From positions 1 to 56,971 of the forward strand of contig JBBRAE010000019.1 in NCBI GenBank assembly GCA_038207085.1: a stretch of DNA of 56,971 nt, read 5' to 3'. Under the pieces are notes generated by a model that had not been told where the DNA came from, made no database searches, and worked only from the letters and a program-made list of their open reading frames with translations. This DNA is from Armatimonadota bacterium. GTDB lineage: Bacteria > Armatimonadota > UBA5829 > DTLH01. Made by a program: the position numbers and the translations under genes. Positions 11,010 to 37,172 of the stretch are shown here, piece after piece (position 1 is the stretch's first letter; each line of letters begins with the position of its first letter).

Positions 11010-12071
11010 TTATAGCACAGCGTTGAAAAGCAGACCAACCAGTAATATACCGACCACGACCACACCGGCGAATGTGGCGATCAGCTGGGGCTTTAGCACC
11101 CTGCGAAGGATGATCATCTCAGGGAACGACAGACCGGTCACCGCCATCATGAACGCGAGGACTGTCCCGAGCGCCGCGCCTTTCTCCATTAGAGCCTGCG
11201 CCATTGGCATAATGCCTATGGTGCTCGAGTACATGGGTAATCCGACTGCCACGGCTGCCGGTACGCTCCACCAGACCCTTTTGCCCATATACGACGCAAG
11301 AACTCCCTCCGGAACGTAGGCGTGGATCAGCGCGCCAACCGCGATGCCCGCGAAAATATAGGGCCAGATCCTGCCGAGTGTGCCACGAACAGCCTGCGTC
11401 CCGAAACGGAGCCTGTCCTCGAAGGTTAACGATGTATCAGGCTCGACGGCGTTTGACATCCTTATTACCAGCACCCAGTCTTCTATATATCGTTCCATTC
11501 TAAGTTTGGAGATAGTCCATCCCGCGGTCACTGCTACTAGCAGCCCAGTTCCGACATACATTGCCGCAGTCTTCGGCCCAAACATATTGATGAGCATCGC
11601 AACCGCGACCTCGTTGACCATCGGAGCCGCAATGAGGAACGAGAGAGTCGCCCCAAGGGGAACTCCGGCTTCCACGAAGCCTATGAAGAGCGGAATGGCC
11701 GAGCAGCTGCAGAACGGCGTGAAGACCCCTAAGACCGCAGCAAGGACGCCTCCCGCCAGGTCGCCTTTTCGGGCCAGGACCCTGCGGACCCCCTCCGGGC
11801 TGAAGAACGAGCGAATGACTCCGAAGACGAAGACCACGAGAGTCAGGATCAGCAGCAACTTCGGCGCTTCGTAAAGAAAGAATCCAACGCTGCTACCCAA
11901 ACGAGACTCAGAATCCAGTCGAAATACACCGGACGTAATGAGACCAGATAGCGGCTTCAGCAAGATGAAGAGCGACACCCACACGACGAGCGCAAGGGCA
12001 AGCCCGCCAATCTGCCACAGGCGATTCACACCCGGTCTCAGCACTTTGTCCAGATCTCTGTGTCTCCCCAT
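11010..12071 (-). CDS. DUF318 / ArsP-like permease
   Basis: TPFCSCSAIPLF, FLIAAPMVNE and LAFMMAVTGLSFPE motifs in a multi-TM protein. Confidence 0.85.
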   Translation of the reverse strand: MGRHRDLDKVLRPGVNRLWQIGGLALALVVWVSLFILLKPLSGLITSGVFRLDSESRLGSSVGFFLYEAPKLLLILTLVVFVFGVIRSFFSPEGVRRVLARKGDLAGGVLAAVLGVFTPFCSCSAIPLFIGFVEAGVPLGATLSFLIAAPMVNEVAVAMLINMFGPKTAAMYVGTGLLVAVTAGWTISKLRMERYIEDWVLVIRMSNAVEPDTSLTFEDRLRFGTQAVRGTLGRIWPYIFAGIAVGALIHAYVPEGVLASYMGKRVWWSVPAAVAVGLPMYSSTIGIMPMAQALMEKGAALGTVLAFMMAVTGLSFPEMIILRRVLKPQLIATFAGVVVVGILLVGLLFNAVL

Positions 12072-12113
12072 AGTCTCCGTTGTTCACGCTTATCGGTGTC
12101 TAGTTCTGTTTAA

Positions 12114-13220
12114 CTATTTGCCGAAACAATATACAGCACCATCGGCTGTCCCTATGACCATTCGACTTCGCGAGATGGCTGGCGAAGCCTTGATCTCCGC
12201 GCCGGCTTTGAACTGCCACAGTTTACGTCCGCTCTGGAGATCCAAAGCGTACAGCTGGCCATCATCGGAACCCGCAAAGACTGTCGAGCCCGAAATGACA
12301 GGGGATGAGTCAACTGCCTCTCTAGCAATAAAAGCCCACACGGTCTTACCTGTCACCGGATTGACTTTGAATATTCTGCCGCTCCTGGAAGCGAAGATCA
12401 CCCCGCTCGCATCCACTGCTGCGCTCGCGTAGATGCCTGCCCCATCGGCCTGCTCCTTGTGCTTCCAGAGCACCTTGCCATCTCTGATCCTCACTGCCAG
12501 ATACTCAGCGTTAAGAGCTCCCACAAACACAGTGCCGGATCGGTAGGCGGGGGCTACAGCCATGTTCGTGTCGACGTTCACCCTGGCCACTTCGCGGCCA
12601 GTTTTCAGGTTGATGCACCTCACGTTGCCGTCGCAACCAGCTATCATCACCCGGTCATCGGCCACGCATGGTGAACAGTGCACCTGCGCATCGGTCTTCA
12701 CTTTCCATTTCAGCCTCCCAGTCCCCGAATCAAGGCAATAGAGGTGATAATCATACGAGCCGAACAAGACAAGCCCCGGAGCAGGGGTGGCTGAAGAGAC
12801 GATCTTGTCGTTCGTCTTGAACTTCCAGAGAACCCTGCCGTTCGTCGCATTCAGAGCGTAGAACGTGCCGCTCTCGTCACCTACATAGAGAGCGTTCCCA
12901 ACTACACAAGGAGAGGCTGTAACCGCGTCCTTGGCGGTGAACTTCCATTTCAGTTTACCGTTGGCAAGTCTTAACGCGAGTACCTGACCCTTCGTCGTCC
13001 CCACGTAGACGGTGTCTCCCACAACCGCTGCAGTCGATTCCACTGCTGACTTCGCCTCATAAGTCCAGATGAGCCGGGGCTTCGCCGACATCACAGATTT
13101 TGCGACGCCCTCCATGCGCGGGCCGCCGCGAAAGCTCGCCCAGTCATCGGACGATTGAGCAATCGCGTCAGCGCCGATAGTGAGCAGCAGCAATGACAAT
13201 ACAATTCTGGCAGTTTTCAT
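12114..13220 (-). CDS. PQQ-type (BamB-like) beta-propeller protein with signal peptide
   Basis: Sec signal, DWASFRG, and repeated SSP-x-V...V(Y/F)VG...LYAL...G..xWxF blades. Confidence 0.88.
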   Translation of the reverse strand: MKTARIVLSLLLLTIGADAIAQSSDDWASFRGGPRMEGVAKSVMSAKPRLIWTYEAKSAVESTAAVVGDTVYVGTTKGQVLALRLANGKLKWKFTAKDAVTASPCVVGNALYVGDESGTFYALNATNGRVLWKFKTNDKIVSSATPAPGLVLFGSYDYHLYCLDSGTGRLKWKVKTDAQVHCSPCVADDRVMIAGCDGNVRCINLKTGREVARVNVDTNMAVAPAYRSGTVFVGALNAEYLAVRIRDGKVLWKHKEQADGAGIYASAAVDASGVIFASRSGRIFKVNPVTGKTVWAFIAREAVDSSPVISGSTVFAGSDDGQLYALDLQSGRKLWQFKAGAEIKASPAISRSRMVIGTADGAVYCFGK

Positions 13221-13222: not shown

Positions 13223-16200
13223 CTATTCTCCTCGAAGCACCTCTATAAGTGGGCCACCGGCGACTTTACTGGCCGCTCCGATGCACGAAGCGAACCCCAC
13301 AACAAGAACACCGACAAACACGGCCGCGACGGCTCCCCAGTTCATCTGAGAATCAGCTCCTGCCAACTCAGGCGCGACGGCTACCAGAGCAGAAAGCGTT
13401 CCCAATAGCACACCGAAAACCAGGAGCCCAACGTTCTCGATCACAAGCATTTTGAATATGGACTTGCGTGAGAACCCCTGGGCGAGCATCAAGGCAAACT
13501 CGCGCCTCCTCTCAAGTGCGCTCCGAAGCAGCACCGCCACCAAGCCAACTGTGCCGAGCATCACACCGAGCCCGCCTATTGCAAGGAACATGGAGAGGTA
13601 AGCGTTCTGCACGCCGATATATGAGTTCAGGACTTCGGCCGTTGTCTTTACCTCGAGTCCCATCCTGCCCAGGTTCCTTCTCAGCACCAGCGCGACCGAT
13701 TGTTCCCTTCCATTTGGCACTTCGAACAGGAAGTAGCGGGGATCGTCGACTCCCGAGAACACCTGTCTGAAGCGGTCCTCCGACATCAGAAGTTCGCTTG
13801 CGAATATGCTCTGAGACAACAGACCGACGAAGCGCATAGCAACCGGCTTACCATCCGCGCCGAGCGTATTGTAAGTCTTACCGAGCCCAGAGTGCAGGTT
13901 CCAAACGACGCTACTTGAATCACCGAACACAGGAATAGCTCTTCCCGCCCCGGCCTGCAGCAGCGTCCAGGGGTTCGGTGAAGGCTTCATAGTAGTAATG
14001 TCGAACCCGCCGCGCTCCATCATCTGCCTGTTCACCGCAATCACTCGCGGATACTGGGGTTTTGCAAGGTTCAGGCAGCTGATATCGTCCCCCGGACTCA
14101 TCAGAAACGAAACGACACGCACACCTTCGAAGGCCTTCTCATCATCCCGAGAGAACCCGAGGTTTTCACGCCCCTTTGGACTGCCGAGATCGTAGTGGAT
14201 GGGAAGGGCGGATACAGCCCGAAGCGCGAACCCACCGGTACCGGAGTCTCGCCTGCCGTAGTCGGTCCGGGAGTAGTCCCTGGTGTTTGCCGCAACGGCT
14301 ATGGTGATGAACGCTGCGGAAGCCAGAAGCGCGATAACCAGCAGACTGCGGCTGCGATTGGCCGCGGCACTCCGCAAAGCCATGCCTCCCAGAGTCGGGA
14401 GCGACATTCGGATTTGCATCGCTCGAATCAGGAGCATATTCGACCCAACCAGTCCGGCAGCCAACAGCGCCGCTCCGCCGCCAAAGAATCCCATCTGAGG
14501 CGAACTGCCGCTCAAGGACGATGCCATCATGCCCACGGCAGTTAACATGCATGCAGCGAGTGCGAGCTTGTTCCGTCCGTCGGCCTTCTTAGAAATGAGC
14601 ACACCCAGAGCCCGCCAGCCGGACAACAGCCGGAGCGCATTCGTTTTTCTCAGCTGTCGAACAGACCACCACATAGAAATCATGCCTACTAGCAGTCCGA
14701 AAAACGCACCGATGACTAGGCTTTCGGTCGAGATGTGCAGCCACACAGAGGTTGTACCCACAGCGTCAATCCAACGTGTCCTAAGCCCGGCGATTACTCC
14801 CGAAGCGTACAGGACCCCAAGTGGGACACCGGCTACCACACCTAATATGGCGAGTAATGTTCCCTGGCAGAATATCACAAGTGACACAGACGCCTGTCTG
14901 AACCCACAGGCAAGCATAACGCCACTCTCTGCGCCGCGCTGTTCTACTGACAACCGCATCAGCATAGCAGCAAGCCCAGCCCCGGAAACTACGAGGAAGA
15001 AGCTCATCGCCATAAACAACTGGCCGAAGTCCGTCGTTCCCGCAGACGATGCGATGACCTGCCTTCGGATAGGACGGAAGAGCATCCCCTCGTCCTCTGC
15101 TGACAAACTCTGTATAAGCGTATGCCCGAATCTTTTACTTAACACTGTCGTGGTTCGCCCTGATCCCGCAGCCACGCGCACAGATGTGACCCAGCCAGCG
15201 TGGCGGCCGGAGGAGGTGCTCATCCAGATCCCGCGCATAGTGTTCAGGCTAACGAAGGCTTTGGGGGTGGTCTTGTGGAGTTTCCAGTAGGTCTCATCAC
15301 GCTCTGTCACCAGGCTCAGGTCGACTGGGAACGGCGGGTTCCAGTCGTCGATACTCTCGGCCTGAGTGATCCCCTCAAAGGCGGGCACGAGATTGCGATC
15401 GTTTGCCGGGCCAACCATGTCGACGATGCCGCGAAGCGTGAGGTGAAGCTCTGCATCTCTATAGGCGCCATCGGGCCGGGGAACGAGGTAGGCAAGCTCA
15501 ATACGGTCCCCTACCCGCGCCTTCAGGTCTTCAGCTGCCCAGGTGTTGAGCCAAATCCCACCATTGTCGAGCAGGGACGAGCCACCCGGCCTGATCGGAA
15601 ACGGCGCGAGGGGCTGGACAGCCGCTACTACGGAATAAGCGAGGCTTGCGCCTGGATGATCGAGGTTCTGAATCTTCGTAGCAAGATAGACTGAGGTCAA
15701 AGCAGAGCGGGCCCCACATTTGCGTGCCGCGTCCTCCCCGGCGATTACCTGACGGCCGTCGAGCAGCATTCCAATGCTCTCCAAAGAGACGCAGTTCTGT
15801 GGCACGTTCGGCACGACCTTCAGTCCGAAGTCGCCAATCGTGCATAAAGGTTTCAGCGCCGCTTGAAGCTCGGGCACAGTATCTTCACCTGTGTCTCGCA
15901 CGGGCTCAGTGACGAGGACGTTCGCCATCCCGTCTTTCCCAATCTCGGACATCAGCCATTCCCGCGAAACGAAGACGCTGCGAAGCGTGTCCGCGCCTGC
16001 GTCGAGTCTGAAGCCTCCGACGCCGTGGTCGTCGAGAACCCTCACCACGTCGAGCCTGAGAGAACTGAGCGTCTCCTCCGACGACTTATGCGCGAACAGA
16101 GTGCCTGACGGAACCGCGCCCTCTTTGTCGACGTTCACGAGGATGCTGTCACCCACCCCAACCCCAAGTTCACGGGCAAGAGAGGAGTTTACCGCAGTCT

Positions 16201-16603
16201 CACGACCCGTGAGGTGGAACCCCAAGCATCCTGGAAAGAGCGTCCAGAACGAATCGTCTACGCCGTTGACCGCGACCTTTGGCAGCACGGCTTCCGTCGT
16301 GACGCTTTCCGCTGCGCCTCGGAGTATCGTGAGAGGGACGACCTGCTTCACTTTTCCGGCGAGACTGGCAGCATGTTGGAGGTCAGACGCAAGTTCGGCG
16401 TGGAAGAACCGGCGGGCTATCAGGGCATTGTCGATGCGACCCAGCCGAGCGGTCGCTGTGTCTGTAATGCTCCCTTTCACCGAATCCCCCACCACAAGTG
16501 ACCCAACGATCACAGCGGTCGCGACGGCGAGGCCGAATACGACCACAGCCCCAGTGCGCCAATAGTAGCAAAGACTGCGTATAACGAGCCGAAACAGTGT
16601 CAC
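13223..16603 (-). CDS. Large ABC transporter permease with two FtsX/LolCE-like modules
   Basis: Two repeats of periplasmic domain plus TM bundle (EQRGAESGVMLACGF; ERRREFALMLAQGF). GTG at 16603 overlaps the ATPase stop (GTGA) and is preferred to 16627. Confidence 0.85.
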   Translation of the reverse strand: MTLFRLVIRSLCYYWRTGAVVVFGLAVATAVIVGSLVVGDSVKGSITDTATARLGRIDNALIARRFFHAELASDLQHAASLAGKVKQVVPLTILRGAAESVTTEAVLPKVAVNGVDDSFWTLFPGCLGFHLTGRETAVNSSLARELGVGVGDSILVNVDKEGAVPSGTLFAHKSSEETLSSLRLDVVRVLDDHGVGGFRLDAGADTLRSVFVSREWLMSEIGKDGMANVLVTEPVRDTGEDTVPELQAALKPLCTIGDFGLKVVPNVPQNCVSLESIGMLLDGRQVIAGEDAARKCGARSALTSVYLATKIQNLDHPGASLAYSVVAAVQPLAPFPIRPGGSSLLDNGGIWLNTWAAEDLKARVGDRIELAYLVPRPDGAYRDAELHLTLRGIVDMVGPANDRNLVPAFEGITQAESIDDWNPPFPVDLSLVTERDETYWKLHKTTPKAFVSLNTMRGIWMSTSSGRHAGWVTSVRVAAGSGRTTTVLSKRFGHTLIQSLSAEDEGMLFRPIRRQVIASSAGTTDFGQLFMAMSFFLVVSGAGLAAMLMRLSVEQRGAESGVMLACGFRQASVSLVIFCQGTLLAILGVVAGVPLGVLYASGVIAGLRTRWIDAVGTTSVWLHISTESLVIGAFFGLLVGMISMWWSVRQLRKTNALRLLSGWRALGVLISKKADGRNKLALAACMLTAVGMMASSLSGSSPQMGFFGGGAALLAAGLVGSNMLLIRAMQIRMSLPTLGGMALRSAAANRSRSLLVIALLASAAFITIAVAANTRDYSRTDYGRRDSGTGGFALRAVSALPIHYDLGSPKGRENLGFSRDDEKAFEGVRVVSFLMSPGDDISCLNLAKPQYPRVIAVNRQMMERGGFDITTMKPSPNPWTLLQAGAGRAIPVFGDSSSVVWNLHSGLGKTYNTLGADGKPVAMRFVGLLSQSIFASELLMSEDRFRQVFSGVDDPRYFLFEVPNGREQSVALVLRRNLGRMGLEVKTTAEVLNSYIGVQNAYLSMFLAIGGLGVMLGTVGLVAVLLRSALERRREFALMLAQGFSRKSIFKMLVIENVGLLVFGVLLGTLSALVAVAPELAGADSQMNWGAVAAVFVGVLVVGFASCIGAASKVAGGPLIEVLRGE

Positions 16604-17313
16604 TGTATTCCGTCCGCCTCCGCGCAAGCGTTCAAAGCGACCAGATGGCCATCGAGAAGCTCGAAACCTGTCCCCAGTCTGGTTGCGTGCTCGAGATTAT
16701 GCGTCACGACGATAATTGACACATCCTGCTCCTCGGCAAGGCAAGTAAGAAGCGAGATCATATTCGAGCCAGCTTCCCGGTCGAGATTGCCGGTCGGCTC
16801 GTCGCAGAGCAAAAGCTTCGCGCCGTTTATGAGCGCCCGTGCCACCGCAGTGCGCTGACGCTCACCGCCGGACATCTGCGCTGGGAAGGCTTCCGACCGG
16901 TGAAGAACACCCATCTCCTCAAGAAGATCTCGTGCCCGCTCGTTTGCCCCGGCCGTTCGCCCTGCGGGAATCGTGGGAAGCAAAACGTTCTCAATGGCGG
17001 TCAGTTGAGGGAGCAAATAATGCTCTTGGAAGACAAAACCAACATCATTTGCCCGAAAGTCGGCCAGACGATTTCCTTCTAGTGCGGTCACTTCGACGCC
17101 GTTTAGCACGACGCTGCCTGAAGTCGGCTTGTCGAGGGAACCGATGATATGTAGGAGCGTGCTCTTCCCTGAACCGGATGGGCCAACAACGGCCAACGTA
17201 CTCCCAGGCTCGACAGTCAGTGAGGCGCCTCTCAGTATAGCCGTCGATCCCTGCGGCCCATCGTATGCCTTCGTGATCTCCGACAGTACCAATCTCCCAG
17301 GTGTTAAAGTCAT
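16600..17313 (-). CDS. ABC transporter ATP-binding protein (LolD/MacB-like)
   Basis: GPSGSGKS Walker A, GFVFQ, MSGGERQR, LLCDEPTGNLD and VTHN. ATG at 17313 overlaps the upstream stop (ATGA). Confidence 0.92.
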   Translation of the reverse strand: MTLTPGRLVLSEITKAYDGPQGSTAILRGASLTVEPGSTLAVVGPSGSGKSTLLHIIGSLDKPTSGSVVLNGVEVTALEGNRLADFRANDVGFVFQEHYLLPQLTAIENVLLPTIPAGRTAGANERARDLLEEMGVLHRSEAFPAQMSGGERQRTAVARALINGAKLLLCDEPTGNLDREAGSNMISLLTCLAEEQDVSIIVVTHNLEHATRLGTGFELLDGHLVALNACAEADGIQ

Positions 17314-18866
17314 AATAGACCTTTCTTTGTGATCACAAGCGCTCCCGTCGGGCAAGCCTCAGCACACTTTCCCGCCACCCTGCACAGTGCTTTGGAAAAC
17401 GGTTCACCGAACGGCACGCCCGGACGCACATTGAACCCGCGACCTATGAACGTAAGCCCAAGTGGCTCACCTGCCTGCTCAGCAAGGCGCACACAGAGTC
17501 CGCAAGATATGCACTTCCCAAGCTCGTAGACGACGAACGGGTGGTCTGTTGTGCGCGTCATCTGCCGACGCTTGCCCCTGAACTTCAACGGGTTCGCCTT
17601 GTATTCCATGCCATAGTCTCGTAGCTTGCAGCCATCCAGCTTCCCGCATTCGCAGTGCAAGCACCGGGCCGACTCTCTCTTCGCTTCGTCCTCACGGAAA
17701 CCCGACTCGGAAGCTTCGACTCGGGCTGATTCGCTCACTCCATCCATTAATATCGAGATTTCATCTTCGACCAGCCGTCCCATGTGGACAGAGTAGTGGT
17801 CGTTGGTAGCCTCTACGAGTTTCCCTACGAGGTATTGAGAAATCGCCAACGCTGCCGATCTGCCATCAGCCACTGCCCGAACTGCGAGCTTCGTGGGTGT
17901 GATAGCCGAGCCCGCCGCGAAAACGCCGAGAACGCTTGTCATCGTAGTAGTTCTATCGACACTTAGGCCGTGGGCAGTCATTTGCAGTTCCCATCGGGCC
18001 GCAAAGTCCGCTTCCACGCGTCCGACAGCCAAGAGCACGGCGTCGAACTCTCCGCCAATATCGTCGGGAGACTCAATTGCGGCACTTTGACGGAAGTCTG
18101 CGCCCAGCTGACGGATTATCGATACCTCTGCATCCAACACTTCGTGCGGCAGTCGTTCTGACGGTGGACCATAGCGCAGCATCCCACCGGGCTTGGGCTG
18201 ACTGTCGAAGACTACGCATTGGTGCCCTTCCTGCAGCAGATAATACGCCGCCGCAAGCCCCGCCGGACCAGCGCCGACAATCGCGACCTTCTTCCCGGTC
18301 TGAAGTCTCCTCTCCGGCACATAAGGCTGCAGAGAGGCAAGGTCCGAATCCGCGACAAAACGCTTCAACTGGCAAATCGAGACCGCGGCATCTTGGGTAG
18401 CGCGGCGGCAGCCCTTTTCGCATAACTCAGGGCAGACCCTACCAAGCGCCGCAGGAAGGGCGATGTGCCGTTTCACGGTGATGAGCGCATCTCGGAAGCG
18501 CCCTTCGGAGATATGACGGACCATCGTCGGAATATCCATGTGAGCCGGACAGACACTCCGGCATGGCCCGACGCAGTCGCCGACGTGATCGCCCAATAGC
18601 AGTTCCAGCGCGGTCCGGCGGGCGTCCGTCACCTCTTCAGAACTACTTTCGACGACCATTCCCTCTTCCGCACGCGTCGCGCAGGCGGGAACGAGCCTGG
18701 AACTGCCATTCACCTTCACAACGCAGAGCATGCACGACGTTTCGGCGCTGTGACCCTCCAGAAAGCACATCGTGGGGATATCCACACCGACCATTTTAGC
18801 CGCGTCGAGGATGGTTATCCCAGCCGGTACCTCAATTGTTCTAGCGTCTATTGTGAGCTTCGGCAT
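17310..18866 (-). CDS. Fe-S flavoprotein: NuoG/HydA-like [2Fe-2S] domain + GltD/NfnL-like Fe-S/FAD domain + C-terminal 2x[4Fe-4S]
   Basis: IPTMC..SCMLCVV..PAC; PCRSVCP..GRVCPELCEKGC; KKVAIVGAGPAG; CLHCEC; KCISCGLCVRL..GRGF..CAEACPTGAL. Confidence 0.82.
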   Translation of the reverse strand: MPKLTIDARTIEVPAGITILDAAKMVGVDIPTMCFLEGHSAETSCMLCVVKVNGSSRLVPACATRAEEGMVVESSSEEVTDARRTALELLLGDHVGDCVGPCRSVCPAHMDIPTMVRHISEGRFRDALITVKRHIALPAALGRVCPELCEKGCRRATQDAAVSICQLKRFVADSDLASLQPYVPERRLQTGKKVAIVGAGPAGLAAAYYLLQEGHQCVVFDSQPKPGGMLRYGPPSERLPHEVLDAEVSIIRQLGADFRQSAAIESPDDIGGEFDAVLLAVGRVEADFAARWELQMTAHGLSVDRTTTMTSVLGVFAAGSAITPTKLAVRAVADGRSAALAISQYLVGKLVEATNDHYSVHMGRLVEDEISILMDGVSESARVEASESGFREDEAKRESARCLHCECGKLDGCKLRDYGMEYKANPLKFRGKRRQMTRTTDHPFVVYELGKCISCGLCVRLAEQAGEPLGLTFIGRGFNVRPGVPFGEPFSKALCRVAGKCAEACPTGALVITKKGLL

Positions 18867-27982: not shown

Positions 27983-28011
27983 GGGAGCTTGGTTCGCGTT
28001 CTCGATTTTCT

Positions 28012-28734: not shown

Positions 28735-28735
28735 A

Positions 28736-30247: not shown

Positions 30248-31965
30248 ACCTCCATGCGGCGTTCAGCACAGCCAAGGACCGGCTTCTCCGTGAGATGAAC
30301 CCCGATGGCTTCTGGGAGGGAGAGCTGTCGTCCTCAGCGTTGTCGACGGCAACCTCCGTTAGCGCCCTTGCCGTATCGGGGCTCCCTGCAGATCGACCGA
30401 TGATCGAGGCGGGAATCTCGTGGCTCACGCGACATCAGAACGCCGATGGAGGCTGGGGAGACACGACCGACAGCCCGAGCAACCTGGCGACAACTCTTCT
30501 CACCGCTGCGGCATTCACACTCGCCCACACGGAACAAGAACACGCCCACACAATGGAGAATACGCGGCATTACATCTCGATATACGCTGGCGACACGCCG
30601 GACGAGCTACTTGCGGCGATCAAACGCATTTATGGAGCCGATAGGACGTTCGCCGTGCCAATCCTCACCAATTGCGCTCTTGCTGGGATGATCTCTTGGG
30701 AGCAGATTCCCAGCCTGCCTTTCGAGCTTGCCGTGTTTCCCCGAGATTGGTACAAGGCGCTGCGCCTGCACGTGGTAAGCTACGCGCTGCCGGCTCTAAT
30801 CGCCATCGGACTCGCAATCGAGCACTACTCCCCCACCCGCTCGCTCTTACGCAGAATTCTGCGACGAGCGGCGACCGGGCGGGTGCTCAAGAAGTTGGAG
30901 GCCATTCAGCCTGAGCACGGGGGCTTCCTTGAGGCGGCTCCACTGACAAGTTTTGTGGCGATGAGCCTCGGCAGCCTGTACGGATCTAAACATCCAGTCG
31001 TCGGCAGATGCCTGGGGTTCCTCAGACAGTCCCAGCGGCCCGATGGCAGCTGGCCCATAGATACGAACCTTTCGGTGTGGCTGACGACGAGCTCGGTATG
31101 TGCGCTTGCTTCCGTGGGCGAAATCGGCTCAATCAACTCAGAGAAGACTCTGCGATGGATTACGACGCAACAGTATCAGACGGCGCATCCTTTCACCGGC
31201 GCCGCACCGCTCGGCTGGGGATGGACACATCTCCCCGGAGGAGTTCCTGATGCCGATGATACATCTGGAGCAGTCCTCGCGTGTGTAACACTCGGAGAAT
31301 TGGGCGCAGCCCGGAGCGGGGTAACGTGGCTCCTCGGTCTGCAGAACGCGGATGGAGGATGGCCAACATTCTGCCGAGGCTGGGGCCATCTGGCGTTCGA
31401 CAGAAGCTCACCCGACATCACCGCCCACGCGATACGGGCCATCAGCATCTGCGATATAGATAGCAGCGAGCGAAGCTATCTACGGGCAGTCAAGCGTGGA
31501 TATGACTACCTCTCGCGGACCCAGCGTCCCGATGGCTCGTGGGCGCCTCTCTGGTTCGGAAACCAAGCAACGCCGGACAAGTGCAACTCGGTGCTTGGAA
31601 CTTCCCGGGTTCTGCTTGCATATTCGGACACTCCAACCTGTAGCACAGAAGCTGCAAAAGGTGTACAATACTTGCTGAACGTGCAAAACTCGGACGACGG
31701 TTGGGGCGGCGGCAAAGGAGTTGCCTCATCTGTGGAAGAGACAGCCTGTGCCGTATCCGCGCTACTTCGGTTTCCGGGTTTGGTTGAATCCAGGAAAGCA
31801 GCGCTTCGAGGAGCAGAATATCTCGCTACACGTGTCGAGGACGGAACGTGGACAGAGCCTGCCCCGGTCGGTCTTTACTTTTCCAGTCTCTGGTACTCTG
31901 AGAGGTTGTATCCCCTCATCTGGACGGTGGAAGCCCTTGGTCTAGCCATCGGCGGGGCGAAATAA
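30244..31965 (+). CDS. Squalene-hopene cyclase-like class II terpene cyclase (573 aa)
   Basis: DGFWEGEL; several QW repeats (QNADGGWG, QRPDGSWP, QNADGGWP, QRPDGSWA, QNSDDGWG); catalytic-type PDADDT (DxDD). ATG at 30244 overlaps the radical SAM stop (ATGA). Confidence 0.88.
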   Translation: MNLHAAFSTAKDRLLREMNPDGFWEGELSSSALSTATSVSALAVSGLPADRPMIEAGISWLTRHQNADGGWGDTTDSPSNLATTLLTAAAFTLAHTEQEHAHTMENTRHYISIYAGDTPDELLAAIKRIYGADRTFAVPILTNCALAGMISWEQIPSLPFELAVFPRDWYKALRLHVVSYALPALIAIGLAIEHYSPTRSLLRRILRRAATGRVLKKLEAIQPEHGGFLEAAPLTSFVAMSLGSLYGSKHPVVGRCLGFLRQSQRPDGSWPIDTNLSVWLTTSSVCALASVGEIGSINSEKTLRWITTQQYQTAHPFTGAAPLGWGWTHLPGGVPDADDTSGAVLACVTLGELGAARSGVTWLLGLQNADGGWPTFCRGWGHLAFDRSSPDITAHAIRAISICDIDSSERSYLRAVKRGYDYLSRTQRPDGSWAPLWFGNQATPDKCNSVLGTSRVLLAYSDTPTCSTEAAKGVQYLLNVQNSDDGWGGGKGVASSVEETACAVSALLRFPGLVESRKAALRGAEYLATRVEDGTWTEPAPVGLYFSSLWYSERLYPLIWTVEALGLAIGGAK

Positions 31966-33686
31966 TGTCAGCAGCAAGAAAACCATCGATGACGAATATC
32001 AGAGTGGTCCCACAAGAGAAGGCAACGCGCGATGCGATACGCGAATTGGCCACGAAGTTTGCCGCCTGCTGGGGTTCCAACGACCAGCCAACTCGCGCGG
32101 AATTGGAGTCAGCGGGCTGCGACATTCTAAAAGAACTCCTCCTCCCCCATGAGTTCCTTGGCTATGCCATGGTGTGCTTCAGCAACGTGTTCTGGCAACC
32201 GGCGTTTGAGTCGGTCCCGTTCAACCGCAGGCTTCTCCTCCTCCCAAGATGTCTCAGCAACAGCAAAGAATGTACGGCCGTGATCGATGCCGAAGAGCTC
32301 CACTGCGCAAACTGTGGGGCGTGCGACATCAGTGGCCTCAAATCGAAAGCCGAGGGTCTTGGATATGAAGTGGTCACATCCGAAGGCACTACGTCAGTCA
32401 TCACGAAAATCCTGCAGGGAGATGCGGACGCCATACTCGGTGTCGCCTGCCTGGAGTCGCTGGAACGATCATACTCGCGGGTCGTCGATCTCGGTGTTCC
32501 GCACGTCGCAGTTCCCCTGCTCCACGACGGCTGCGTCGACACCACGACAGAGCTCGACCAGCTGTTAGCGGTGTTGGGCACGGCATCGGAGCACCTGGTT
32601 CCAGCCCGCAGAACGTACCTGCCGCTTCTTCGCCAAACCGCGCATATTTTTGATAGCAAGTCGCTCATAGACCTCCTCCCGGAAGATATCGGTGGGCTTC
32701 TGCTCGACGATAGCACCCCGAACCCTACTACTGCGACGGAGATCATCGCGCTGGAGTGGCTCCGAAACCGGGGCAAACGGCTTCGTCCATTTCTTACGAC
32801 GTCATCTTACGCCGTCGCTCGTTACGGTTTTGAGGCGCTTTCAGCGGATGCCGATTCTTCGGCCCTTATACCTGCATCTGTCAGGCGGCTAGCCCTTGCA
32901 ATCGAGGCACTCCACAAGGCCTCCCTCATTCACGACGACATCGAGGACGATGACGAGTATCGCTATGGACGCAAGACCCTACACAGGCAGTACGGCATCG
33001 CTGCGGCCATAAACATTGGAGACTACCTGGTCGGCCTCGGTTACAACCTCATTGCAGGGGGAACAGAGGATCTCGGGGCGGGCTGTGTACCAGATGTTCT
33101 GAAGCGACTCTCGGCGGCGCACCTGGAGCTATGCCGTGGGCAGGGCGCGGAACTCTTCTGGAAAGACAACCAGGACGTTCCGCTGCGTCCGATCGATGCA
33201 CTCTCGATTTATGCCTGGAAGACCGCTCCAGCGCTGGAGGTCGCGCTCTATGCCGGTCTGCGCGCTGCACAGGCCGATGTGGACGAGGCTCTCCTTCATC
33301 AGTTCTGTGTGTACCTCGGCGAAGGGTATCAGGTGATGAACGATCTCGATGACTGGCAACCCTATGCAGCGGGACGAGTGCGCGCAGGCGGTGACGCCAT
33401 CGCCAATCGGCCCACTATCCTGCATGCCTTCGCCCTGGATGCTGGAGGAGAGGCTGCCAGAAACGCGATCAATAGTATCAAGCTGACCGGCGCTGATGTC
33501 GACGAAGAAGTCAACCGGCTCAGGCAGCTCTATACAGAACTTGCTGTGTTCGACCAGGCCCAGCGGCTCGTCGAACGGTTGAGAGGACGAGCCGAGTCTC
33601 TGATCGACAGCTTCAATCCACGACCTTTGGGCGATTTGATGAGATTCCTGGTAACTCTTATACTCCCCAACGAATACAACACGTGA
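31965..33686 (+). CDS. DUF116 domain fused to a trans-polyprenyl diphosphate synthase
   Basis: N-terminal LLPRCL..C..CANCGAC..GVAC (DUF116-like); GKRLRP, ASLIHDDIEDD..RYG (FARM), GQG, KT and YQVMNDLDD (SARM variant). Confidence 0.88.
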   Translation: MSAARKPSMTNIRVVPQEKATRDAIRELATKFAACWGSNDQPTRAELESAGCDILKELLLPHEFLGYAMVCFSNVFWQPAFESVPFNRRLLLLPRCLSNSKECTAVIDAEELHCANCGACDISGLKSKAEGLGYEVVTSEGTTSVITKILQGDADAILGVACLESLERSYSRVVDLGVPHVAVPLLHDGCVDTTTELDQLLAVLGTASEHLVPARRTYLPLLRQTAHIFDSKSLIDLLPEDIGGLLLDDSTPNPTTATEIIALEWLRNRGKRLRPFLTTSSYAVARYGFEALSADADSSALIPASVRRLALAIEALHKASLIHDDIEDDDEYRYGRKTLHRQYGIAAAINIGDYLVGLGYNLIAGGTEDLGAGCVPDVLKRLSAAHLELCRGQGAELFWKDNQDVPLRPIDALSIYAWKTAPALEVALYAGLRAAQADVDEALLHQFCVYLGEGYQVMNDLDDWQPYAAGRVRAGGDAIANRPTILHAFALDAGGEAARNAINSIKLTGADVDEEVNRLRQLYTELAVFDQAQRLVERLRGRAESLIDSFNPRPLGDLMRFLVTLILPNEYNT

Positions 33687-34642
33687 CGACGCGAATCGGC
33701 TATCTCGACGCGCTGGATAGGCTGCTCATTCTGGGGCTCGGCAGCCTCAGCCGCGCGTTCATCGACAAACAATGCGCATTTGCCGGAGCAAGGCAGCTGC
33801 CAAACGGCGGATTCCAGGGTAGACAGGGAGCCGCCGACCTTTACTACGCCGACTTCGGAGTCCGCCTGAGCTCACTGCTCTCTCCCAACCCCTCGGCGCT
33901 CACGTCAGCCGCTCGATGGGCAAGTCAACAGCAGTCTGAGCCCCGGGATGTTGTAACAGCCTTCAACTTGCTCAATATCGACCGAATGCTGCGGCTCCAC
34001 AACTTGGAGTCATCAGTTGACAGGCGGCGGATCGGCTCCGTCATACAGGCACAGCAGCTCACCGGTGGAGGGTTTTCGCGATCCGGGGGAGCGGAGGTCA
34101 GCGCCTATAACACATTTTTGGCCGCGCTGTGTTTTGAGATGATGGAAACGGAGCACCCCGACCCCAATGGCGCAATTCGCGCAGTGCGTGGCCTGAAACG
34201 GCGGGACGGATGTTACGGCGAGAGCACGGGATGGTCCGAGGGCCAGACGAACGCCACCGCGGCTGCAGTGGCGTTCCTGACAATGTATAATGCGCTTCCT
34301 GCCGAAGACTCGGAATCGGCTGCGAGGTTCCTCGCCACGATGCAGTCACCTGAAGGCGGGATTCCTGCCCAGCTGTCTGCCCCAGAGGATGATCTGCTGT
34401 CCACGTTTACAGCAGTCTTGACCCTGTTCGGTCTGAATCAACTCGAACGCCTCAATCTTCCGTCTATCGCGCGATTCGTTGGCAGTCTGGCGTGTGTTGA
34501 GGGCGGGTTCCGTGCATGCCTCTCAGACGACGAGCCCGACATCGAATACACTTACTACGGCATCGGCACAATGGCTCTCCTGCGCACTTTTGTATTGGCG
34601 AGAGAGCAGAATGACACTCTTTCACCCGGACTATTTGAGTGA
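33683..34642 (+). CDS. Prenyltransferase/squalene oxidase repeat protein (geranylgeranyltransferase beta-like barrel)
   Basis: Repeats QLPNGGFQGR..ADLYY, GGGFSR..SAYNTF, QTNATAA, DDLLSTF and GGFRA..DIEYTYYG. GTGA overlap with the upstream gene. Confidence 0.8.
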   Translation: MTTRIGYLDALDRLLILGLGSLSRAFIDKQCAFAGARQLPNGGFQGRQGAADLYYADFGVRLSSLLSPNPSALTSAARWASQQQSEPRDVVTAFNLLNIDRMLRLHNLESSVDRRRIGSVIQAQQLTGGGFSRSGGAEVSAYNTFLAALCFEMMETEHPDPNGAIRAVRGLKRRDGCYGESTGWSEGQTNATAAAVAFLTMYNALPAEDSESAARFLATMQSPEGGIPAQLSAPEDDLLSTFTAVLTLFGLNQLERLNLPSIARFVGSLACVEGGFRACLSDDEPDIEYTYYGIGTMALLRTFVLAREQNDTLSPGLFE

Positions 34643-35836
34643 AAAGCAGGCCAGTGTGCTCTTGTTTCGCACGATCAGCTTGCCGTCCGAGATAATCGGC
34701 GCGGTCCAACTCTGACCACCGAGCGGGGCAAACCTGCCCATCTCCTGGTAGGAGTCCGAGGCGGGCTTTACCATAACCAGATCCCCACTCTTGCCATCCA
34801 AAGCCATCAGGACGCCATCAGCTGATACCAAACCGCCGAACTCGAACCCCGGCTGCTTCCACATAACCTTGCCGGTAATGGGATCCATACAATTCAACTC
34901 TCCAGGCTCGCCTACGCCATAGACTAATCCGCCGAGGAGGATAGGCGAACTGAAACGACAGGGCATATCCTTGCTTTCCCATTTCACCTTGGGTCCTGCG
35001 GGGAGTATCTCCACGAGTCCACTGCCGTGCCCATAACCACTGGTCAGAAACACGCTCTCTCCCAGCACTATAGCCGCGGCTCCATTGATGTCGTAGCTGG
35101 TCTTCCACGGCTGTCTCCACAAGACGGCGCCCGTTTTCGAATCGACACCGATCATGCTGACTCCAGTAAAGACTACATACTGCCGCTTCCCGTTGATCGT
35201 TGCGATAATCGGCGTAGCATAAGCAGATATGTCGCTCCCACCACCCTGCCAGATGGTGCTGCCGTTGACCTTGTTTAGAGCCACCATCCCAGCATCGGGC
35301 CCACCGGGGGAGACTATCACCTGGTTGCCATCAACTACCGGCGACATCGCATAGAGCCATCCAGGTTTCTTCCCCTTGAAGTCTGCAAAGGTATCCCTCG
35401 ACCATACTTTTTTGCCGGTCTTCGCATCCAGACAAGTCAATAGTCCCATACGGCCGAAAACATACACCTTGCCGGCATCGATCGCCGGGGTCGCTCTCGA
35501 AAAGCCATAGTTCGGCCCCTGAGTGTCCGGATAGCTGTAATGCCAGACATCCTTGCCCGTTGTGATATCGACCGCTCTTACGACGTCCGACTCCTTGCCT
35601 TTGTGGTCTATAATGAAGACTTTTCCACCTGCTACGGAGGGTCCGGCATAGCCATCATCGCCCATTGGCGTCTGCCAGAGCATCTTGGGCGGCTTCTGGC
35701 CCCAGTTTTTGTTTATGCCCTTATCAGGTGATATGCCGTTGGCGCTCGGGCCTCTGAACTGTGGCCAGTCCGAAGCGCACGCCGCAATCGACAGCCAAAC
35801 TCCGATAAGAATAACAAACGATGTTACAGTTCGCAT
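34631..35836 (-). CDS. PQQ-type beta-propeller protein with signal peptide
   Basis: SDWPQFRGP, DGYAGPSV, SRATP and SWTAPIISDGKLIVRN; tandem paralogue of 35973..37172. Confidence 0.88.
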   Translation of the reverse strand: MRTVTSFVILIGVWLSIAACASDWPQFRGPSANGISPDKGINKNWGQKPPKMLWQTPMGDDGYAGPSVAGGKVFIIDHKGKESDVVRAVDITTGKDVWHYSYPDTQGPNYGFSRATPAIDAGKVYVFGRMGLLTCLDAKTGKKVWSRDTFADFKGKKPGWLYAMSPVVDGNQVIVSPGGPDAGMVALNKVNGSTIWQGGGSDISAYATPIIATINGKRQYVVFTGVSMIGVDSKTGAVLWRQPWKTSYDINGAAAIVLGESVFLTSGYGHGSGLVEILPAGPKVKWESKDMPCRFSSPILLGGLVYGVGEPGELNCMDPITGKVMWKQPGFEFGGLVSADGVLMALDGKSGDLVMVKPASDSYQEMGRFAPLGGQSWTAPIISDGKLIVRNKSTLACFSLK

Positions 35837-35972
35837 TATCTAAATCCTCCAAAAGCACGCTAACTTGAATATTGTGTTTTGTCCATCGGTATATGCCGCG
35901 TGCGATGCTTCGTAGCAGAAGTTGCCAATGCACAAGAATCAAGTTAATCCGAAACCAGAGCTACTGCTTTAG

Positions 35973-37172
35973 CTACTTCAAGTCGAAGCAGGCGAGCTCT
36001 GTATTGTTTCTTACAATGAGCTTTCCATTTGAGACAATTGGCGCATTCCAGCTCTGGCCGCCGAGAGGCTTGAACCTTCCGAGTTCCTTGTAGGCGTCAG
36101 GAACAGGGTCCACCATGACCAGGGTGCCGTTCCCGCCATCAAACATCAGCAGGACGCCATCAACCATGGACAAAGGCCCTTTTTCAAAGCCTGGTTGCCG
36201 CCACTTCAGTGTGCCAGTTTGGACGTCCACGCAGACCAGATCTCCGGGATCGGTGTCTTGATATATGTATCCGTTAACAAGTATGGGGGAACTGATGTGT
36301 GACCTGACATCGTTGTTGACCCATCTCATCTTTGGTCCTTCAGCCGCCATATCCACAAGGGCGCTGCCGCCATTTGTCGAGAGGAACACAGAGTTACCGG
36401 TCACGATCGGCTGCGGGATGGGAGCGCCGAACGGCTTCAACGGCTGGCTGTTCCACAACTCCACGCCGGTGTTCGGGTCTACTGCAACCAGCCCGGTCCC
36501 CATAAGCGCGACATACTGCTTCTGACCGTTTATGGTCGCGACTATCGGGGTGGAATATCCAGGTTCCCGAGTCCCGCCGCCCTGCCAGATCGTCCGCCCA
36601 CTGGTCTTGTCGAGAGCTACTATACTTGCATTGGGTCCACCAGGGAGGAGGATCAGCTTGTTGCCATCGAGCAGAGGGGACCACCCATAGTTGAAGCCCG
36701 GTTTCTTCCCCTTGAAGTCCGTCAATATATTGCGAGACCAAAGCTTTTTGCCCGTTTTCACGTCCAGACAGTTCAACAACCCCATCCGACCGAGCGCGTA
36801 CACCCTTGTCTTGTCGACGATGGGCGTCGCACGACAAAACCCCCAGTTCGCCTTTTCGGCGTCCGCGTAGCTATACTGCCAGACATCCTTGCCGGTCTTC
36901 ATATCGATCGCTCTTACGATGTCCTGATCGTCTTTGTGATCGATAATAAAGACCCTGCCGTTTGCAGCAGCCGGTCCGGCGTAGCCTTTATCGGCGACGG
37001 GAGTTTTCCAGAGCGCTTTTGGCGGGTTCTGGTTCCAGTTCCTGTTAATTTGCTTTTCGGGAGAGATACCATCGGCATTGGGGCCTCTGAACTGGGGCCA
37101 ATCAGACGCGAGAAGCACCGCTGGGAGCAGTAACACGAGTGTGAGGGCAGAAAAAATCATACGACGCGACAT
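35973..37172 (-). CDS. PQQ-type beta-propeller protein with signal peptide
   Basis: SDWPQFRGP, KGYAGPA, CRATP and SWNAPIVSNGKLIVRN; GGAGGAG RBS. Confidence 0.88.
   Translation of the reverse strand: MSRRMIFSALTLVLLLPAVLLASDWPQFRGPNADGISPEKQINRNWNQNPPKALWKTPVADKGYAGPAAANGRVFIIDHKDDQDIVRAIDMKTGKDVWQYSYADAEKANWGFCRATPIVDKTRVYALGRMGLLNCLDVKTGKKLWSRNILTDFKGKKPGFNYGWSPLLDGNKLILLPGGPNASIVALDKTSGRTIWQGGGTREPGYSTPIVATINGQKQYVALMGTGLVAVDPNTGVELWNSQPLKPFGAPIPQPIVTGNSVFLSTNGGSALVDMAAEGPKMRWVNNDVRSHISSPILVNGYIYQDTDPGDLVCVDVQTGTLKWRQPGFEKGPLSMVDGVLLMFDGGNGTLVMVDPVPDAYKELGRFKPLGGQSWNAPIVSNGKLIVRNNTELACFDLK

Follow-up and report, generated by a model that had tools for sequence, protein, structure and literature searches.

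The 'SHC-like' proteins, class II terpene cyclases resembling squalene-hopene cyclase (SHC), form a clade that two studies regard as the main uncharacterized branch and as a possible source of unknown polycyclic lipids or orphan biomarkers (Santana-Molina et al., 2020, Mol Biol Evol, PMC7306690; a 2025 preprint, PMC12324236, which calls for its characterization). In the portions of these papers available to us, the clade is reported from Planctomycetes, Verrucomicrobia and Acidobacteriota, conserves the catalytic residues and has a polyprenyl synthase next to it; no function has yet been demonstrated for it, and its substrate has been inferred not to be squalene. Here we analyze a DNA stretch of 56,971 nucleotides from an Armatimonadota bacterium (assembly GCA_038207085.1, contig JBBRAE010000019.1; hereafter the window), in which a cyclase gene that presumably belongs to this clade lies in a cluster of 19 genes. 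We treat the cluster as three modules: a terpenoid cassette (T, genes r1 to r5), an ATP-binding cassette (ABC) ATPase with its FtsX permease and the propeller PQQa (X), and a set of redox and propeller proteins (R, genes g12 to g05); coordinates are given in Table 1. The system is best explained as a conserved, modular cell-envelope system of uncultured bacteria of the Planctomycetes-Verrucomicrobia-Chlamydiae (PVC) type, whose modules are shuffled between genomes and whose closest loci are mostly labeled Planctomycetota. Its parts are known families; their assembly matches no known kind of system.

The cyclase r3 has the taxonomic spread, the conserved catalytic residues and the neighboring synthase of the 'SHC-like' clade, and it is on taxonomic distribution and gene context, rather than on tree placement, that we assign it there. 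In the text at hand, the published descriptions of the clade are silent on the DUF116 fusion (r4), on r1, r2 and r5, on ABC/FtsX and on the propellers and redox genes; more neighboring genes than the text names may be shown in supplementary figure S10 of PMC7306690. Described pathways also pair a polyprenyl synthase with a cyclase of the SHC superfamily: in that of sporulenol (HepS/HepT, YtpB, SqhC) and in those of the epoxy-polyprenyl cyclases (Lon15, AtoE), the synthase feeds a head-to-tail isoprenoid to the cyclase, according to the same partial sources (PMC7306690; PMC12324236). Our cassette shares this pairing, but unlike the sporulenol pathway it is accompanied by no YtpB-like class I enzyme in the cluster and, unlike the Lon15 and AtoE pathways, by no epoxidase in the window, a GGR/halogenase-like flavoprotein being present only in Gemmataceae-type clusters. 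It adds iron-sulfur proteins, a radical SAM enzyme, a toroid and ties to envelope modules. The original prediction, made from the sequence of the window, knew of no characterized pathway combining these families, and this still holds: the literature shows only the pair of cyclase and polyprenyl synthase, with its function unknown, and our search of papers outside subscription-only journals returned no description of the DUF116 fusion, of the r1/r2/r5 set, of the link to ABC/FtsX, of module R or of their coupling.

Module R recalls two other kinds of system. NapH-like proteins are described, in the part of the source we could use, as modular trans-membrane conduits to extracytosolic oxidoreductases that include PQQ alcohol dehydrogenases (Méheust et al., 2021, PMC8238504). 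As in NapGH and NosGH, R combines a membrane polyferredoxin (CxxC, cytoplasmic 4Fe-4S) with a polyferredoxin exported by twin-arginine translocation (Tat), and it has a modular tie to periplasmic propeller-type proteins. Unlike them, the cluster encodes no FMN-binding domain (typical of NapH-like systems), ApbE, NapA/B, NosZ or cytochrome; the cytoplasmic partner is a Bfu-type flavoprotein, not the quinol pool alone as for NapGH, and the terminal proteins are NHL and BamB-sized propellers with no assigned activity. A Nap or Nos system proper was rejected, as the cluster holds no catalytic subunit and no molybdopterin or cytochrome family. The flavoprotein itself resembles HydABC, StnABC (8OH5; PMC10482914) and NfnABC (9N5U): g06 joins NuoE- and NuoF-like parts to a C-terminal 2x[4Fe-4S] domain, and g05 matches the N-terminal part of StnC/NfnA. 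Unlike in these Bfu complexes, two core subunits are fused, g05 has 518 aa against 963-1178 aa in its relatives and seems to lack their formate-dehydrogenase-like/NuoG extension, and the third redox partner would apparently be a membrane conduit in place of NADP, H2 or formate. Module X is akin to the type VII (mechanotransmission) ABC systems MacB, LolCDE and YbbAP in its LolD-like ATPase, FtsX-type transmembrane domains and MacB-like periplasmic core domain. It differs from them in that the permease is duplicated within one 1134-aa chain whose first periplasmic loop has about 490 residues, and from MacB-type systems in that the cluster encodes no membrane-fusion or TolC-like partner, the conserved neighbor being a PQQ_2 propeller.

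We propose tentatively, and with slightly less than even confidence, that T makes a cyclized, radical-SAM-tailored isoprenoid not derived from squalene, that X moves it to the propellers and that R gives electrons to, or takes them from, a periplasmic step involving this lipid. In genomes like that of the window, the product of T would then be the lipid, or a lipid-like cofactor, on which R works in the periplasm or which R requires. All the chemistry of this scheme, what the ABC machine carries and which way the electrons run are inferred; so are the ABC export of an isoprenoid and the flow of electrons from NADH to the propellers in the original prediction, whose interpretation is, overall, partly supported.

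The linkage between the modules is directly observed. That prediction had joined two arms head to head, and would have been refuted had they occurred independently elsewhere with no conserved linkage or co-expression. In a sample of 251 genomes of the window's phylum, evenly drawn and including the window genome, the NHL protein g11, marker of R, was found in 41 (E <= 1e-30), r2 in 27 (E <= 1e-40), r4 in 30 (E <= 1e-50) and r3 in 32 (E <= 1e-40); the thresholds used and short contigs make absences provisional. Against the background of 41/251, NHL is present in 25 of the 27 r2 genomes, and 16 of the 17 genera with r2 have it where about three would be expected from the marginals (17 and 27 of 139 genera). 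In 17 of these 25 genomes, from eight families, both genes lie on one contig in divergent orientation and 2.3-3.2 kb apart. For the five-gene cassette the arms are therefore not unlinked. Four of the five genomes followed up behind NHL-anchored loci also carry a full-length DUF116-synthase gene elsewhere in the genome. One of them (G004) has everything on a single contig in the order PQQa-ABC-FtsX-PQQc-NHL-Fdx-NapH-PQQb-NuoEF-GltD-3xPQQd-r1-r2-r4-r5-r3, with the cassette on the same strand; in G001, G002 and G005 the cassette is on another contig than R, again flanked by PQQd-type propellers. Outside the phylum sample, two genomes that carry T, one labeled Verrucomicrobia and the other Thermoguttaceae, encode NHL-Fdx-NapH(-PQQb) as an operon on a different contig; one genome each labeled Gemmataceae, Gimesia and Pyrinomonadaceae had no close NHL. 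The five-gene cassette thus requires R or at the least accompanies it, and R is independent of T.

Loci collected around three anchors show how the modules are combined. With r4 as query we obtained more than 557 relatives and kept 80 loci, labeled Planctomycetota, Verrucomicrobia, Armatimonadota and Acidobacteriota. By tblastn of all window proteins (E <= 1e-10, coverage >= 0.4), 65 of the 80 match r3, 29 r5, 23 r1, 18 r2 and 14 the ABC ATPase, all lower bounds as many loci are short; relatives of r3 in loci labeled Planctomycetes, Verrucomicrobia and Acidobacteriota, including a Gemmata sp. record, are 44-59% identical. Eight of the 12 r4-anchored loci that we laid out have the order r5-ABC-FtsX, among them Gemmataceae- and Pirellulales-labeled ones without redox genes. 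L002 repeats the window's own divergent arrangement, L008 reads GltD..r1-r5-ABC-FtsX-PQQa, and L015 is a fusion on one strand, r1-r5-ABC-FtsX-PQQa-PQQc-NHL-Fdx. Loci anchored on NHL all keep one order (16/16), PQQa-(GT4)-ABC-FtsX-PQQc-NHL-(small)-Fdx-NapH-PQQb-NuoEF-GltD-PQQd, with no terpenoid genes within the fetched 10 kb. The NapH search gave 152 relatives in a species-level collection, of which 80 were kept, and extends the labels to Poribacteria, Omnitrophota, Aegiribacteria and Chthonomonadales; the core order PQQc-NHL-(small)-Fdx-NapH-PQQb-NuoEF-GltD is nearly fixed in these 80 loci, as far as each reaches. Upstream of PQQc, in the 50 that could be assessed, we found a same-strand (GT4)-ABC-FtsX in 17, other propellers in four, a divergent terpenoid cassette in six, the same with one propeller between in one (L142) and nothing recognizable in 22. 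The ABC gene directly follows GltD, as in the window, in seven of 52 loci that contain GltD, and the divergent T-R junction recurs in L104, L105, L111, L116, L122 and L157. The ABC/FtsX pair is therefore a third module, found with either T or R. Because 16 of the 41 NHL genomes have no cyclase and most NapH loci no neighboring T, R is an autonomous module and not simply a service arm for the terpenoid. Of the two arms first proposed, the tie of T to R stands, and the assignment of ABC/FtsX and of R to a single arm does not.

This autonomy suggests another explanation, which we consider rather unlikely: R, with X and the propellers, would be a periplasmic redox system of anaerobes, an electron sink or an oxidase for some external substrate, fed or drained by way of the Bfu-type NADH/ferredoxin module and the NapGH-like conduit. 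T would contribute only indirectly, for instance through a membrane-ordering lipid or a lipid cofactor required by the membrane part of R in some lineages, and the isoprenoid would be neither exported by X nor transformed by R. The near-fixed gene order of R in both the NHL- and the NapH-anchored loci, its presence without a cyclase and the position of X beside R where T is not near all agree with this, as do the at least six further NuoEF-like genes of the window genome, typical of a fermentative anaerobe, and the varied extracytosolic oxidoreductases that NapH-like conduits serve (PMC8238504, seen in part). It accounts poorly, however, for a five-gene cassette that almost never occurs without R, for a divergent T-R promoter region common to 17 sampled genomes, and for the r5 gene directly upstream of ABC-FtsX in lineages without R, which ties X to T. 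Also, no recurrent enzyme that could be a candidate for the external substrate turned up in the flanks of 12 R-only loci, where we saw more PQQ_2 proteins, proteins with an SHD1 domain and otherwise unrelated genes only.

The two arms could, alternatively, be functionally unrelated neighbors on one patchily distributed genomic island, which we find distinctly improbable. The distribution is indeed patchy (either marker is in none of the two genomes of the window's own family and in one of 13 of its own order) and each module exists alone elsewhere. In a Verrucomicrobia-labeled locus, two phage-integrase-family genes lie directly upstream of the NHL-Fdx-NapH-PQQb operon (L170:5725-7430), flanking an R locus and hinting at module mobility. 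But hitch-hiking does not predict that different families join the same genes in three or more orders and orientations, nor that NHL be in nearly every genus with r2, nor that two genomes of other lineages carry both modules, each on its own contig.

A joint function of T, X and R has its own difficulties. Among the 25 genomes with both markers, eight have them on different contigs (in fragmented assemblies of 210-780 contigs), and the modules are unlinked in G001, G002, G005 and G007. Two r2 genomes, of the same genus, have no NHL; the 16 NHL genomes without a cyclase also lack r2 and r4 at the thresholds used; five of the 32 cyclase genomes have neither r2 nor NHL. Only six of the 50 assessable NapH-anchored loci (seven with L142) have T directly upstream. 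Related genomes are not independent, so that the co-occurrence counts overstate the number of events. Cyclase-synthase pairs labeled Gemmataceae and Gimesia are found with other partners (GcvH-like, another radical SAM, GGR-like flavoprotein, MFS, GT4, thioesterase). At the level of the proteins, the role of r4 in chain elongation is uncertain, with two deviant motif positions, and neither the BamB-sized propellers nor the NHL protein, whose fold is closest to binding modules, need be an enzyme.

Within T, the identity of r3 is the best defined. Its DADD aligns with the DVDD of the Alicyclobacillus acidocaldarius SHC (1GSZ), the catalytic motif of a solved hopene cyclase, and D-x-D-D-T (D336, D338, D339, T340) is invariant in 68 of 68 homologues. 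It is the sole PF13243 gene of the window genome (3.35 Mb, 100% complete by marker genes). The search for squalene/phytoene synthase (PF00494) found no match in this genome and matched eight of 14 control genomes, and r3 scores 117.8 bits against the hopene_cyclase model, below the equivalog cut-off of 431.1; on both counts r3 does not qualify as a squalene-hopene cyclase proper, and a hopanoid or sterol pathway was rejected because squalene synthase is missing. For the same lack of a squalene/phytoene synthase family gene, the substrate of r3 should be not squalene but a regular prenyl chain, which the DxDD cyclase would protonate and cyclize as its diphosphate. The genome has two ordinary polyprenyl synthases besides r4. 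Upstream of r3, the ferredoxin-like r1 belongs to the conserved 'Fer4L' family that adjoins the cyclase in other phyla, and both its domains are homologous to L044:5813-6874; an Atlas search with its residues 1-128 returned only unnamed clusters with scores of at most 0.84. The radical SAM motif CX3CX2C of r2 reads CGLGCSFC (residues 229-236) and is conserved in 20 sequences. Its B12-binding score (17.1 bits) is under the cut-off of 32.1, its match to TIGR04013 is partial (67.9 bits, cut-off 251), and its closest PDB relatives are RimO/TM1862 (E about 1e-3). Electrons from r1 might be used by r2 to tailor the carbon skeleton.

The fusion r4 was predicted to be a trans-prenyl synthase, and at family level the fold and the first DDxxD agree with this. 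The first aspartate-rich motif (FARM), KASLxHDDIEDDD..RYG, is essentially invariant (D324, D325 and D328 in 85/85 sequences) and is preceded by small residues (A, S). A canonical trans-isoprenyl diphosphate synthase has DDxxD as second motif and RRG after the FARM. In r4 the second motif reads NDLxD (N in 80/85) and RYG follows the FARM (Y334 in 85/85), and r4 stays far under the cut-off of every NCBIfam synthase equivalog. Since the NDxxD and RYG deviate from the canonical form, simple chain elongation is not assured, and r4 may couple rather than simply elongate: it would provide, or couple, a regular non-squalene prenyl diphosphate in the cytoplasm. Its DUF116 part conserves Cys96, 103, 114, 117, 120, 162 and 190 in 85/85 sequences, including a C-x2-C-x2-C. 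The model of this domain (pLDDT 80.4) has a Rossmann-like core; no PDB entry matched it in Foldseek at E <= 0.001, and a VIA-align wide comparison gave only generic Rossmann-like and flavodoxin-like rows (best Z 5.9) and no functional lead. A literature search for DUF116 or PF01976 found no paper. The domain, with seven invariant cysteines and fused to an isoprenoid enzyme, thus receives its first context.

The toroid r5 has as its closest PDB relatives the beta chains of RabGGTase (E 3.4e-7), and these and the farnesyltransferase beta subunits, its nearest solved relatives, raise the possibility of protein or peptide lipidation, with the small Tat peptide g10 or the Cys-Cys of the NHL protein as targets. 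A variant is the maturation of a cofactor, as in quinohemoprotein amine dehydrogenase, by the radical SAM enzyme, a small Cys peptide, an ABC exporter and a propeller, a set likened to QhpC/QhpD/QhpF/QhpB. We hold both to be very improbable. Candidate targets do exist, as R has a conserved small Cys-rich peptide and invariant vicinal cysteines in NHL. But the zinc site of protein prenyltransferase beta subunits is made of Asp, Cys and His ligands, and among 30 homologues of r5 no Cys or His column is conserved (the best, C150, in 20/30), so that r5 is not a Zn-dependent protein prenyltransferase. Nor does any of the 19 cluster proteins belong to an alpha-subunit-like Pfam family; the candidate targets are exported, whereas r5 has a predicted place in the cytoplasm; and the radical SAM gene goes with cyclase and synthase rather than with the peptide, which R-only loci keep without r2. 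Under the reading we favor, in which T makes a tailored isoprenoid for the envelope, the Zn-less toroid would bind the isoprenoid and hand it on.

A broader form of the cassette is found in other lineages. There it comprises, in order, a GcvH-like protein, Fer4L (the r1 family), a radical SAM enzyme (r2 or NirJ/SPASM-like, sometimes plus a HemN-like one), the cyclase, the DUF116-synthase, a 181-aa protein, the GGR/halogenase-like flavoprotein, MFS, a glycosyltransferase of family 4 (GT4), a 4HBT thioesterase and r5-ABC-FtsX. No such GT4, GcvH-like or flavoprotein gene is found in the window genome, whose cassette is therefore reduced. In 45 loci of at least 15 kb, r2 (12 loci) and the flavoprotein (three loci) never occur together, which hints, in small numbers, at oxygen-independent and oxygen-dependent alternatives. 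The GcvH-like gene, of the lipoyl-carrier type, lies directly upstream of the r1-family gene at L044:5356-5820, and 26 of the 45 loci have it in the corresponding place; the pair occurs in Verrucomicrobia-, Acidobacteriota- and Planctomycetota-labeled loci, and the window genome has an ordinary GcvH with 26% identity.

The ATPase g04 of module X has LolD as its top NCBIfam model (Table 1). Its permease g03 has about ten transmembrane helices and extracytoplasmic loops of about 490 and 234 residues by hydropathy; its sole PDB relative is MacB (E 6e-6), the match to MacB_PCD is weak (25.4 bits, just below the cut-off of 27), and no paralogue was found in the window genome. PQQa accompanies ABC-FtsX in other genomes. 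A complex prediction of the loop 47-536 with mature PQQa had a score of nil and counts neither for nor against an interaction. YbbAP-TesA is the source of the idea of lipid hand-over that we apply here: X would be a mechanotransmission machine that passes a lipid from the membrane to secreted PQQ_2 propellers. A GT4 protein of a T+X cluster (L017:7373-8668) and one of an R+X operon (L083:3101-4396), which have an N-terminal C-x2-C motif, are 35% identical over their full length; by sequence, this may be a further thread between the two combinations.

In module R, g06 has almost the same architecture as the bifurcating core of StnAB/HydBC/NfnBC (E 8.9e-230 to 9BOV_B, 6.1e-221 to 8OH5 chain B and 1.7e-220 to NfnB, 9N5U_B). 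Its partner g05 matches chain C of 8OH5 (E 4e-99) only over residues 6-317 of 1172, and profile scans matched Pyr_redox_2 only at positions 1-40 of 291 and detected no NADPH subdomain. As g05 covers just the first ~310 residues of StnC and has no detectable NADPH subdomain, the third arm of this Bfu-type module would be the membrane conduit formed by g08 and g09. The match of g08 to NapH/MauN (E 1.6e-12) has 48.5 bits against an equivalog cut-off of 234; its CxxC and CxxCxxCxxxCP motifs (two 4Fe-4S sites) are conserved in 13 sequences, and no FMN_bind domain was detected in the Pfam scan. By a hydropathy scan, from which all protein locations were predicted, r1, r2, r4, r5, g04, g05 and g06 are cytoplasmic and r3 has no signal peptide, whereas signals or anchors direct the propellers, the NHL protein, the ferredoxin and the small peptide outward. 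The flavoprotein and the shortened StnC-like g05 could connect the NADH and ferredoxin pools to the NapH-like polyferredoxin, and electrons may pass from there to the Tat-exported NapG-like ferredoxin and on to the membrane-anchored NHL protein (Cys-Cys) and the PQQ_2 propellers in the periplasm. The direction may be either, with R supplying or removing electrons. Six further NuoEF-like genes, 40-50% identical to g06, are found on contigs C3, C2, C23, C8, C4 and C29 of the window genome, whose many HydBC/Bfu-type modules fit an anaerobic fermentative lifestyle.

The GCCNP motif pointed out in the NHL protein g11 is present and conserved: G-x-G-C-C-N-P is found in at least 95% of 19 homologues, and C224-C225-N226-P227 is invariant in a 16-row alignment. 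The model of g11 is a clean six-bladed propeller (pLDDT 84.7) with TRIM-type NHL binding domains as top Foldseek matches (E 4e-18); fold comparison gave no enzymatic lead, and in the Atlas it matched nothing but unnamed or NHL clusters. PQQc precedes NHL in most R loci and PQQb follows NapH in nearly all. Small open reading frames (ORFs) with the motif and position of g10 were found in six of 18 related loci scanned, with tblastn matches in several further R loci; g10 itself has only weak matches to TAT-signal models. All five propellers announced within or beside the cluster were recovered with the PQQ_2 profile, and five of the eight above-cut-off PQQ_2 genes of the window genome are here (g02, g07, g12, d1, d2); d1-type propellers flank the cassette or R in other genomes. 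Compared with a PQQ-dependent dehydrogenase (about 550-600 aa), they look BamB-like, with 368-401 aa and a best score of 100.6 bits for TIGR03075 (cut-off 480). PqqC had no match in the window genome, and none in 14 control genomes by the same search, which is thus uninformative. The largest propeller protein of the window genome lies outside the cluster, a 2680-aa frame with several PQQ_2 stretches (G000:C10:8355-15101). In three loci with no terpenoid or ABC genes nearby, a protein of some 1100 aa that begins with a PQQ_2 propeller is encoded convergent to the end of module R (L165:17986-21252, L161:17202-20447 and L176:17671-21018); that of L165 adds a methyltransferase domain.

With these neighbors, the 'SHC-like' clade gains a defined and conserved gene set (ferredoxin-like protein, radical SAM, DUF116-synthase, toroid, ABC/FtsX) through which the question of its function becomes testable. 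Module R would be a new route for cytoplasmic NADH or ferredoxin electrons to the periplasm without heme or flavinylated carriers, and it is widespread in anaerobic Planctomycetota-labeled and neighboring lineages of sediments and digesters, as the 41 of 251 genomes and the 152 NapH-type relatives indicate. A bolder generalization, which we put forward as doubtful, is that the orphan 'SHC-like' cyclases are the core of an unknown class of bacterial cyclic polyprenoids whose maturation or use, in anaerobes, requires a trans-envelope route of its own. The type VII ABC machine would deliver the lipid to periplasmic propellers, and a bifurcating Bfu-type module, connected by a NapGH-like conduit, would power redox reactions of or with the lipid outside the cytoplasm. 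If true, this would be the first Bfu-type complex with a membrane conduit as its third arm, and the first terpenoid pathway in which a periplasmic step driven by ferredoxin is obligatory.

The layout of the locus is as first described, a tightly packed left operon of 12 genes and a right one of five, and the families then named (NuoEF fusion, NapH-like, Tat ferredoxin, LolD/FtsX, cyclase, prenyl synthase, radical SAM, NHL) agree with the Pfam and NCBIfam profile scans of all 19 cluster genes. The 12 ORFs of the left arm run in one direction from 27853 down to 11010 on the minus strand and are joined by overlaps or short gaps: an ATGA overlap between NHL and the small ORF, 1-nt overlaps at 24549 and 21230, gaps of 2-3 nt at 18866/18870 and 13220/13223, and at most 42 nt, before the ArsP gene. 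Several bigger apparent overlaps in this arm hinge on the start codon picked. The five ORFs of the right arm (plus strand, 28012-34642) are separated by a 1-nt gap and then by overlaps of 4, 1 and 4 nt; the start of r3 is most likely the ATG at 30244, in an ATGA overlap with the radical SAM stop, rather than the TTG at 29959. Two further PQQ_2 propellers on the minus strand, d1 and d2, come after the right arm. The gap between the arms does contain the overlapping divergent promoters that had been announced, in the sense of consensus matches only: three sigma-70-like hexamer pairs where shuffled sequence would give 0.4, among them a minus-strand TTGACA-17-TATTAT (11/12) overlapping a plus-strand TATACA-17-TATAAT. 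From this gap, CCTTGACAG is common to two of the seven other junctions and a TATTATAACAT block to one of the seven; a motif search across the eight junctions found no common operator, only promoter-like words shared by two or three close relatives.

Table 1. Genes of the cluster and the divergent gap, with positions in the window and the profile matches or motifs that define each.
Feature	Position	Strand	Assignment and evidence
g01	11010-12071	-	ArsP-type permease; ArsP_1 235.6 bits; co-directional, outside the conserved set
g02 (PQQa)	12114-13220	-	Secreted PQQ_2/BamB-like propeller; Beta-prop_ACSF4 232.7 bits, PQQ_2 152.7 bits; signal-peptide-like N-terminus
g03	13223-16627	-	Duplicated FtsX permease, 1134 aa; FtsX 70.2 bits in two stretches
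g04	16600-17355	-	LolD/MacB-type ABC ATPase; ABC_tran 115.5 bits; top NCBIfam LolD 221.6 bits, E 8.6e-66, under the 307.75 cut-off
g05	17310-18866	-	Truncated StnC/NfnA relative, 518 aa; 2Fe-2S, 4Fe-4S, GltD-like FAD fold, NuoG-type Fe-S domain
g06	18870-21230	-	NuoE-NuoF fusion; 2Fe-2S_thioredx, Complex1_51K, NADH_4Fe-4S, Fer4; C-terminal 2x[4Fe-4S]; HydBC/StnAB-type (Bfu) resemblance
g07 (PQQb)	21230-23350	-	About 3 transmembrane helices, proline-rich linker, C-terminal PQQ_2 propeller (91.8 bits)
g08	23245-24549	-	NapH-like membrane Fe-S protein; Fer4_5 53.3 bits and other Fer4 families; about 6 hydrophobic helices
g09	24549-25175	-	Tat-signal polyferredoxin, NapG-like; Fer4 families; RRDLLK motif; Cys motifs conserved in 14 sequences
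g10	25127-25348	-	Small peptide, 73 aa; twin-arginine-like N-terminus, one hydrophobic helix, C-x6-C-x2-C-x6-C..LPQALS motif
g11	25345-26433	-	Membrane-anchored six-bladed NHL propeller with GCCNP; Pfam NHL; one transmembrane helix; marker of module R
g12 (PQQc)	26384-27853	-	Membrane-anchored PQQ_2 propeller; PQQ_2 85.6 bits; one N-terminal hydrophobic helix; first gene of the left arm
Intergenic region	27854-28011		158-bp divergent gap; overlapping promoter-like hexamers on both strands
r1	28012-28734	+	Ferredoxin-like protein; N-terminal domain of no known family and 2x[4Fe-4S], Pfam Fer4 families at residues 131-188
r2	28736-30247	+	Radical SAM enzyme; Radical_SAM 32.8 bits, above cut-off; putative degenerate B12-binding-like N-terminal domain
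r3	30244-31965	+	Class II ('SHC-like') terpene cyclase, 573 aa; SQHop_cyclase_C 122.8 bits, SQHop_cyclase_N 86.0 bits, both above cut-offs
r4	31965-33686	+	DUF116 and polyprenyl-synthase-like fusion; DUF116 102.6 bits, polyprenyl_synt 123.5 bits
r5	33683-34642	+	Prenyltransferase-beta-like alpha-alpha toroid, Zn-less; Prenyltrans 73.5 bits; GGFxGR-type repeat toroid
d1	34631-35836	-	PQQ_2 propeller, lipoprotein-like signal (…IAAC); PQQ_2 123.7 bits
d2	35973-37172	-	Secreted PQQ_2 propeller; PQQ_2 142.1 bits; 57% identical to d1

The ArsP gene had been counted in the left arm, and here the comparison disagrees: g01 has no match in any of the 80 r4-anchored loci compared, is absent from the NHL- and NapH-anchored layouts, and has a paralogue, 60% identical, on contig C20 of the window genome. 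The genes flanking the cluster (GtrA, amine-oxidase-like, HAD, GT2, PEMT-like, AP_endonuc_2, GFO and nitroreductase) were also considered as parts and rejected, since they are not conserved beside the modules. On the ArsP side, GtrA-like, amine-oxidase/UDP-galactopyranose-mutase-like, HAD and GT2 genes at 7211-10641 (plus strand), together with Wzy_C, PMT_2 and Polysacc_synt genes further upstream, form an envelope glycan locus that is not conserved with the cluster. On the other side, two genes past the last propeller, a membrane methyltransferase of the PEMT family (phospholipid/isoprenylcysteine type) is encoded at 37903-38481 (minus strand). As a hint of CaaX-type processing this PEMT/ICMT-like gene was dismissed, not being conserved beside the modules in any fetched locus. 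The stretch was found in two DNA runs of one sediment-metagenome study, of which one may be its source, with no RNA run listed. Further along, a LarA-like gene (lactate racemase family) at 51710-52987 (plus strand) adjoins a GntR regulator and an aldehyde dehydrogenase, near rhamnosidase and GH127 genes, in an ordinary setting of sugar-acid utilization.

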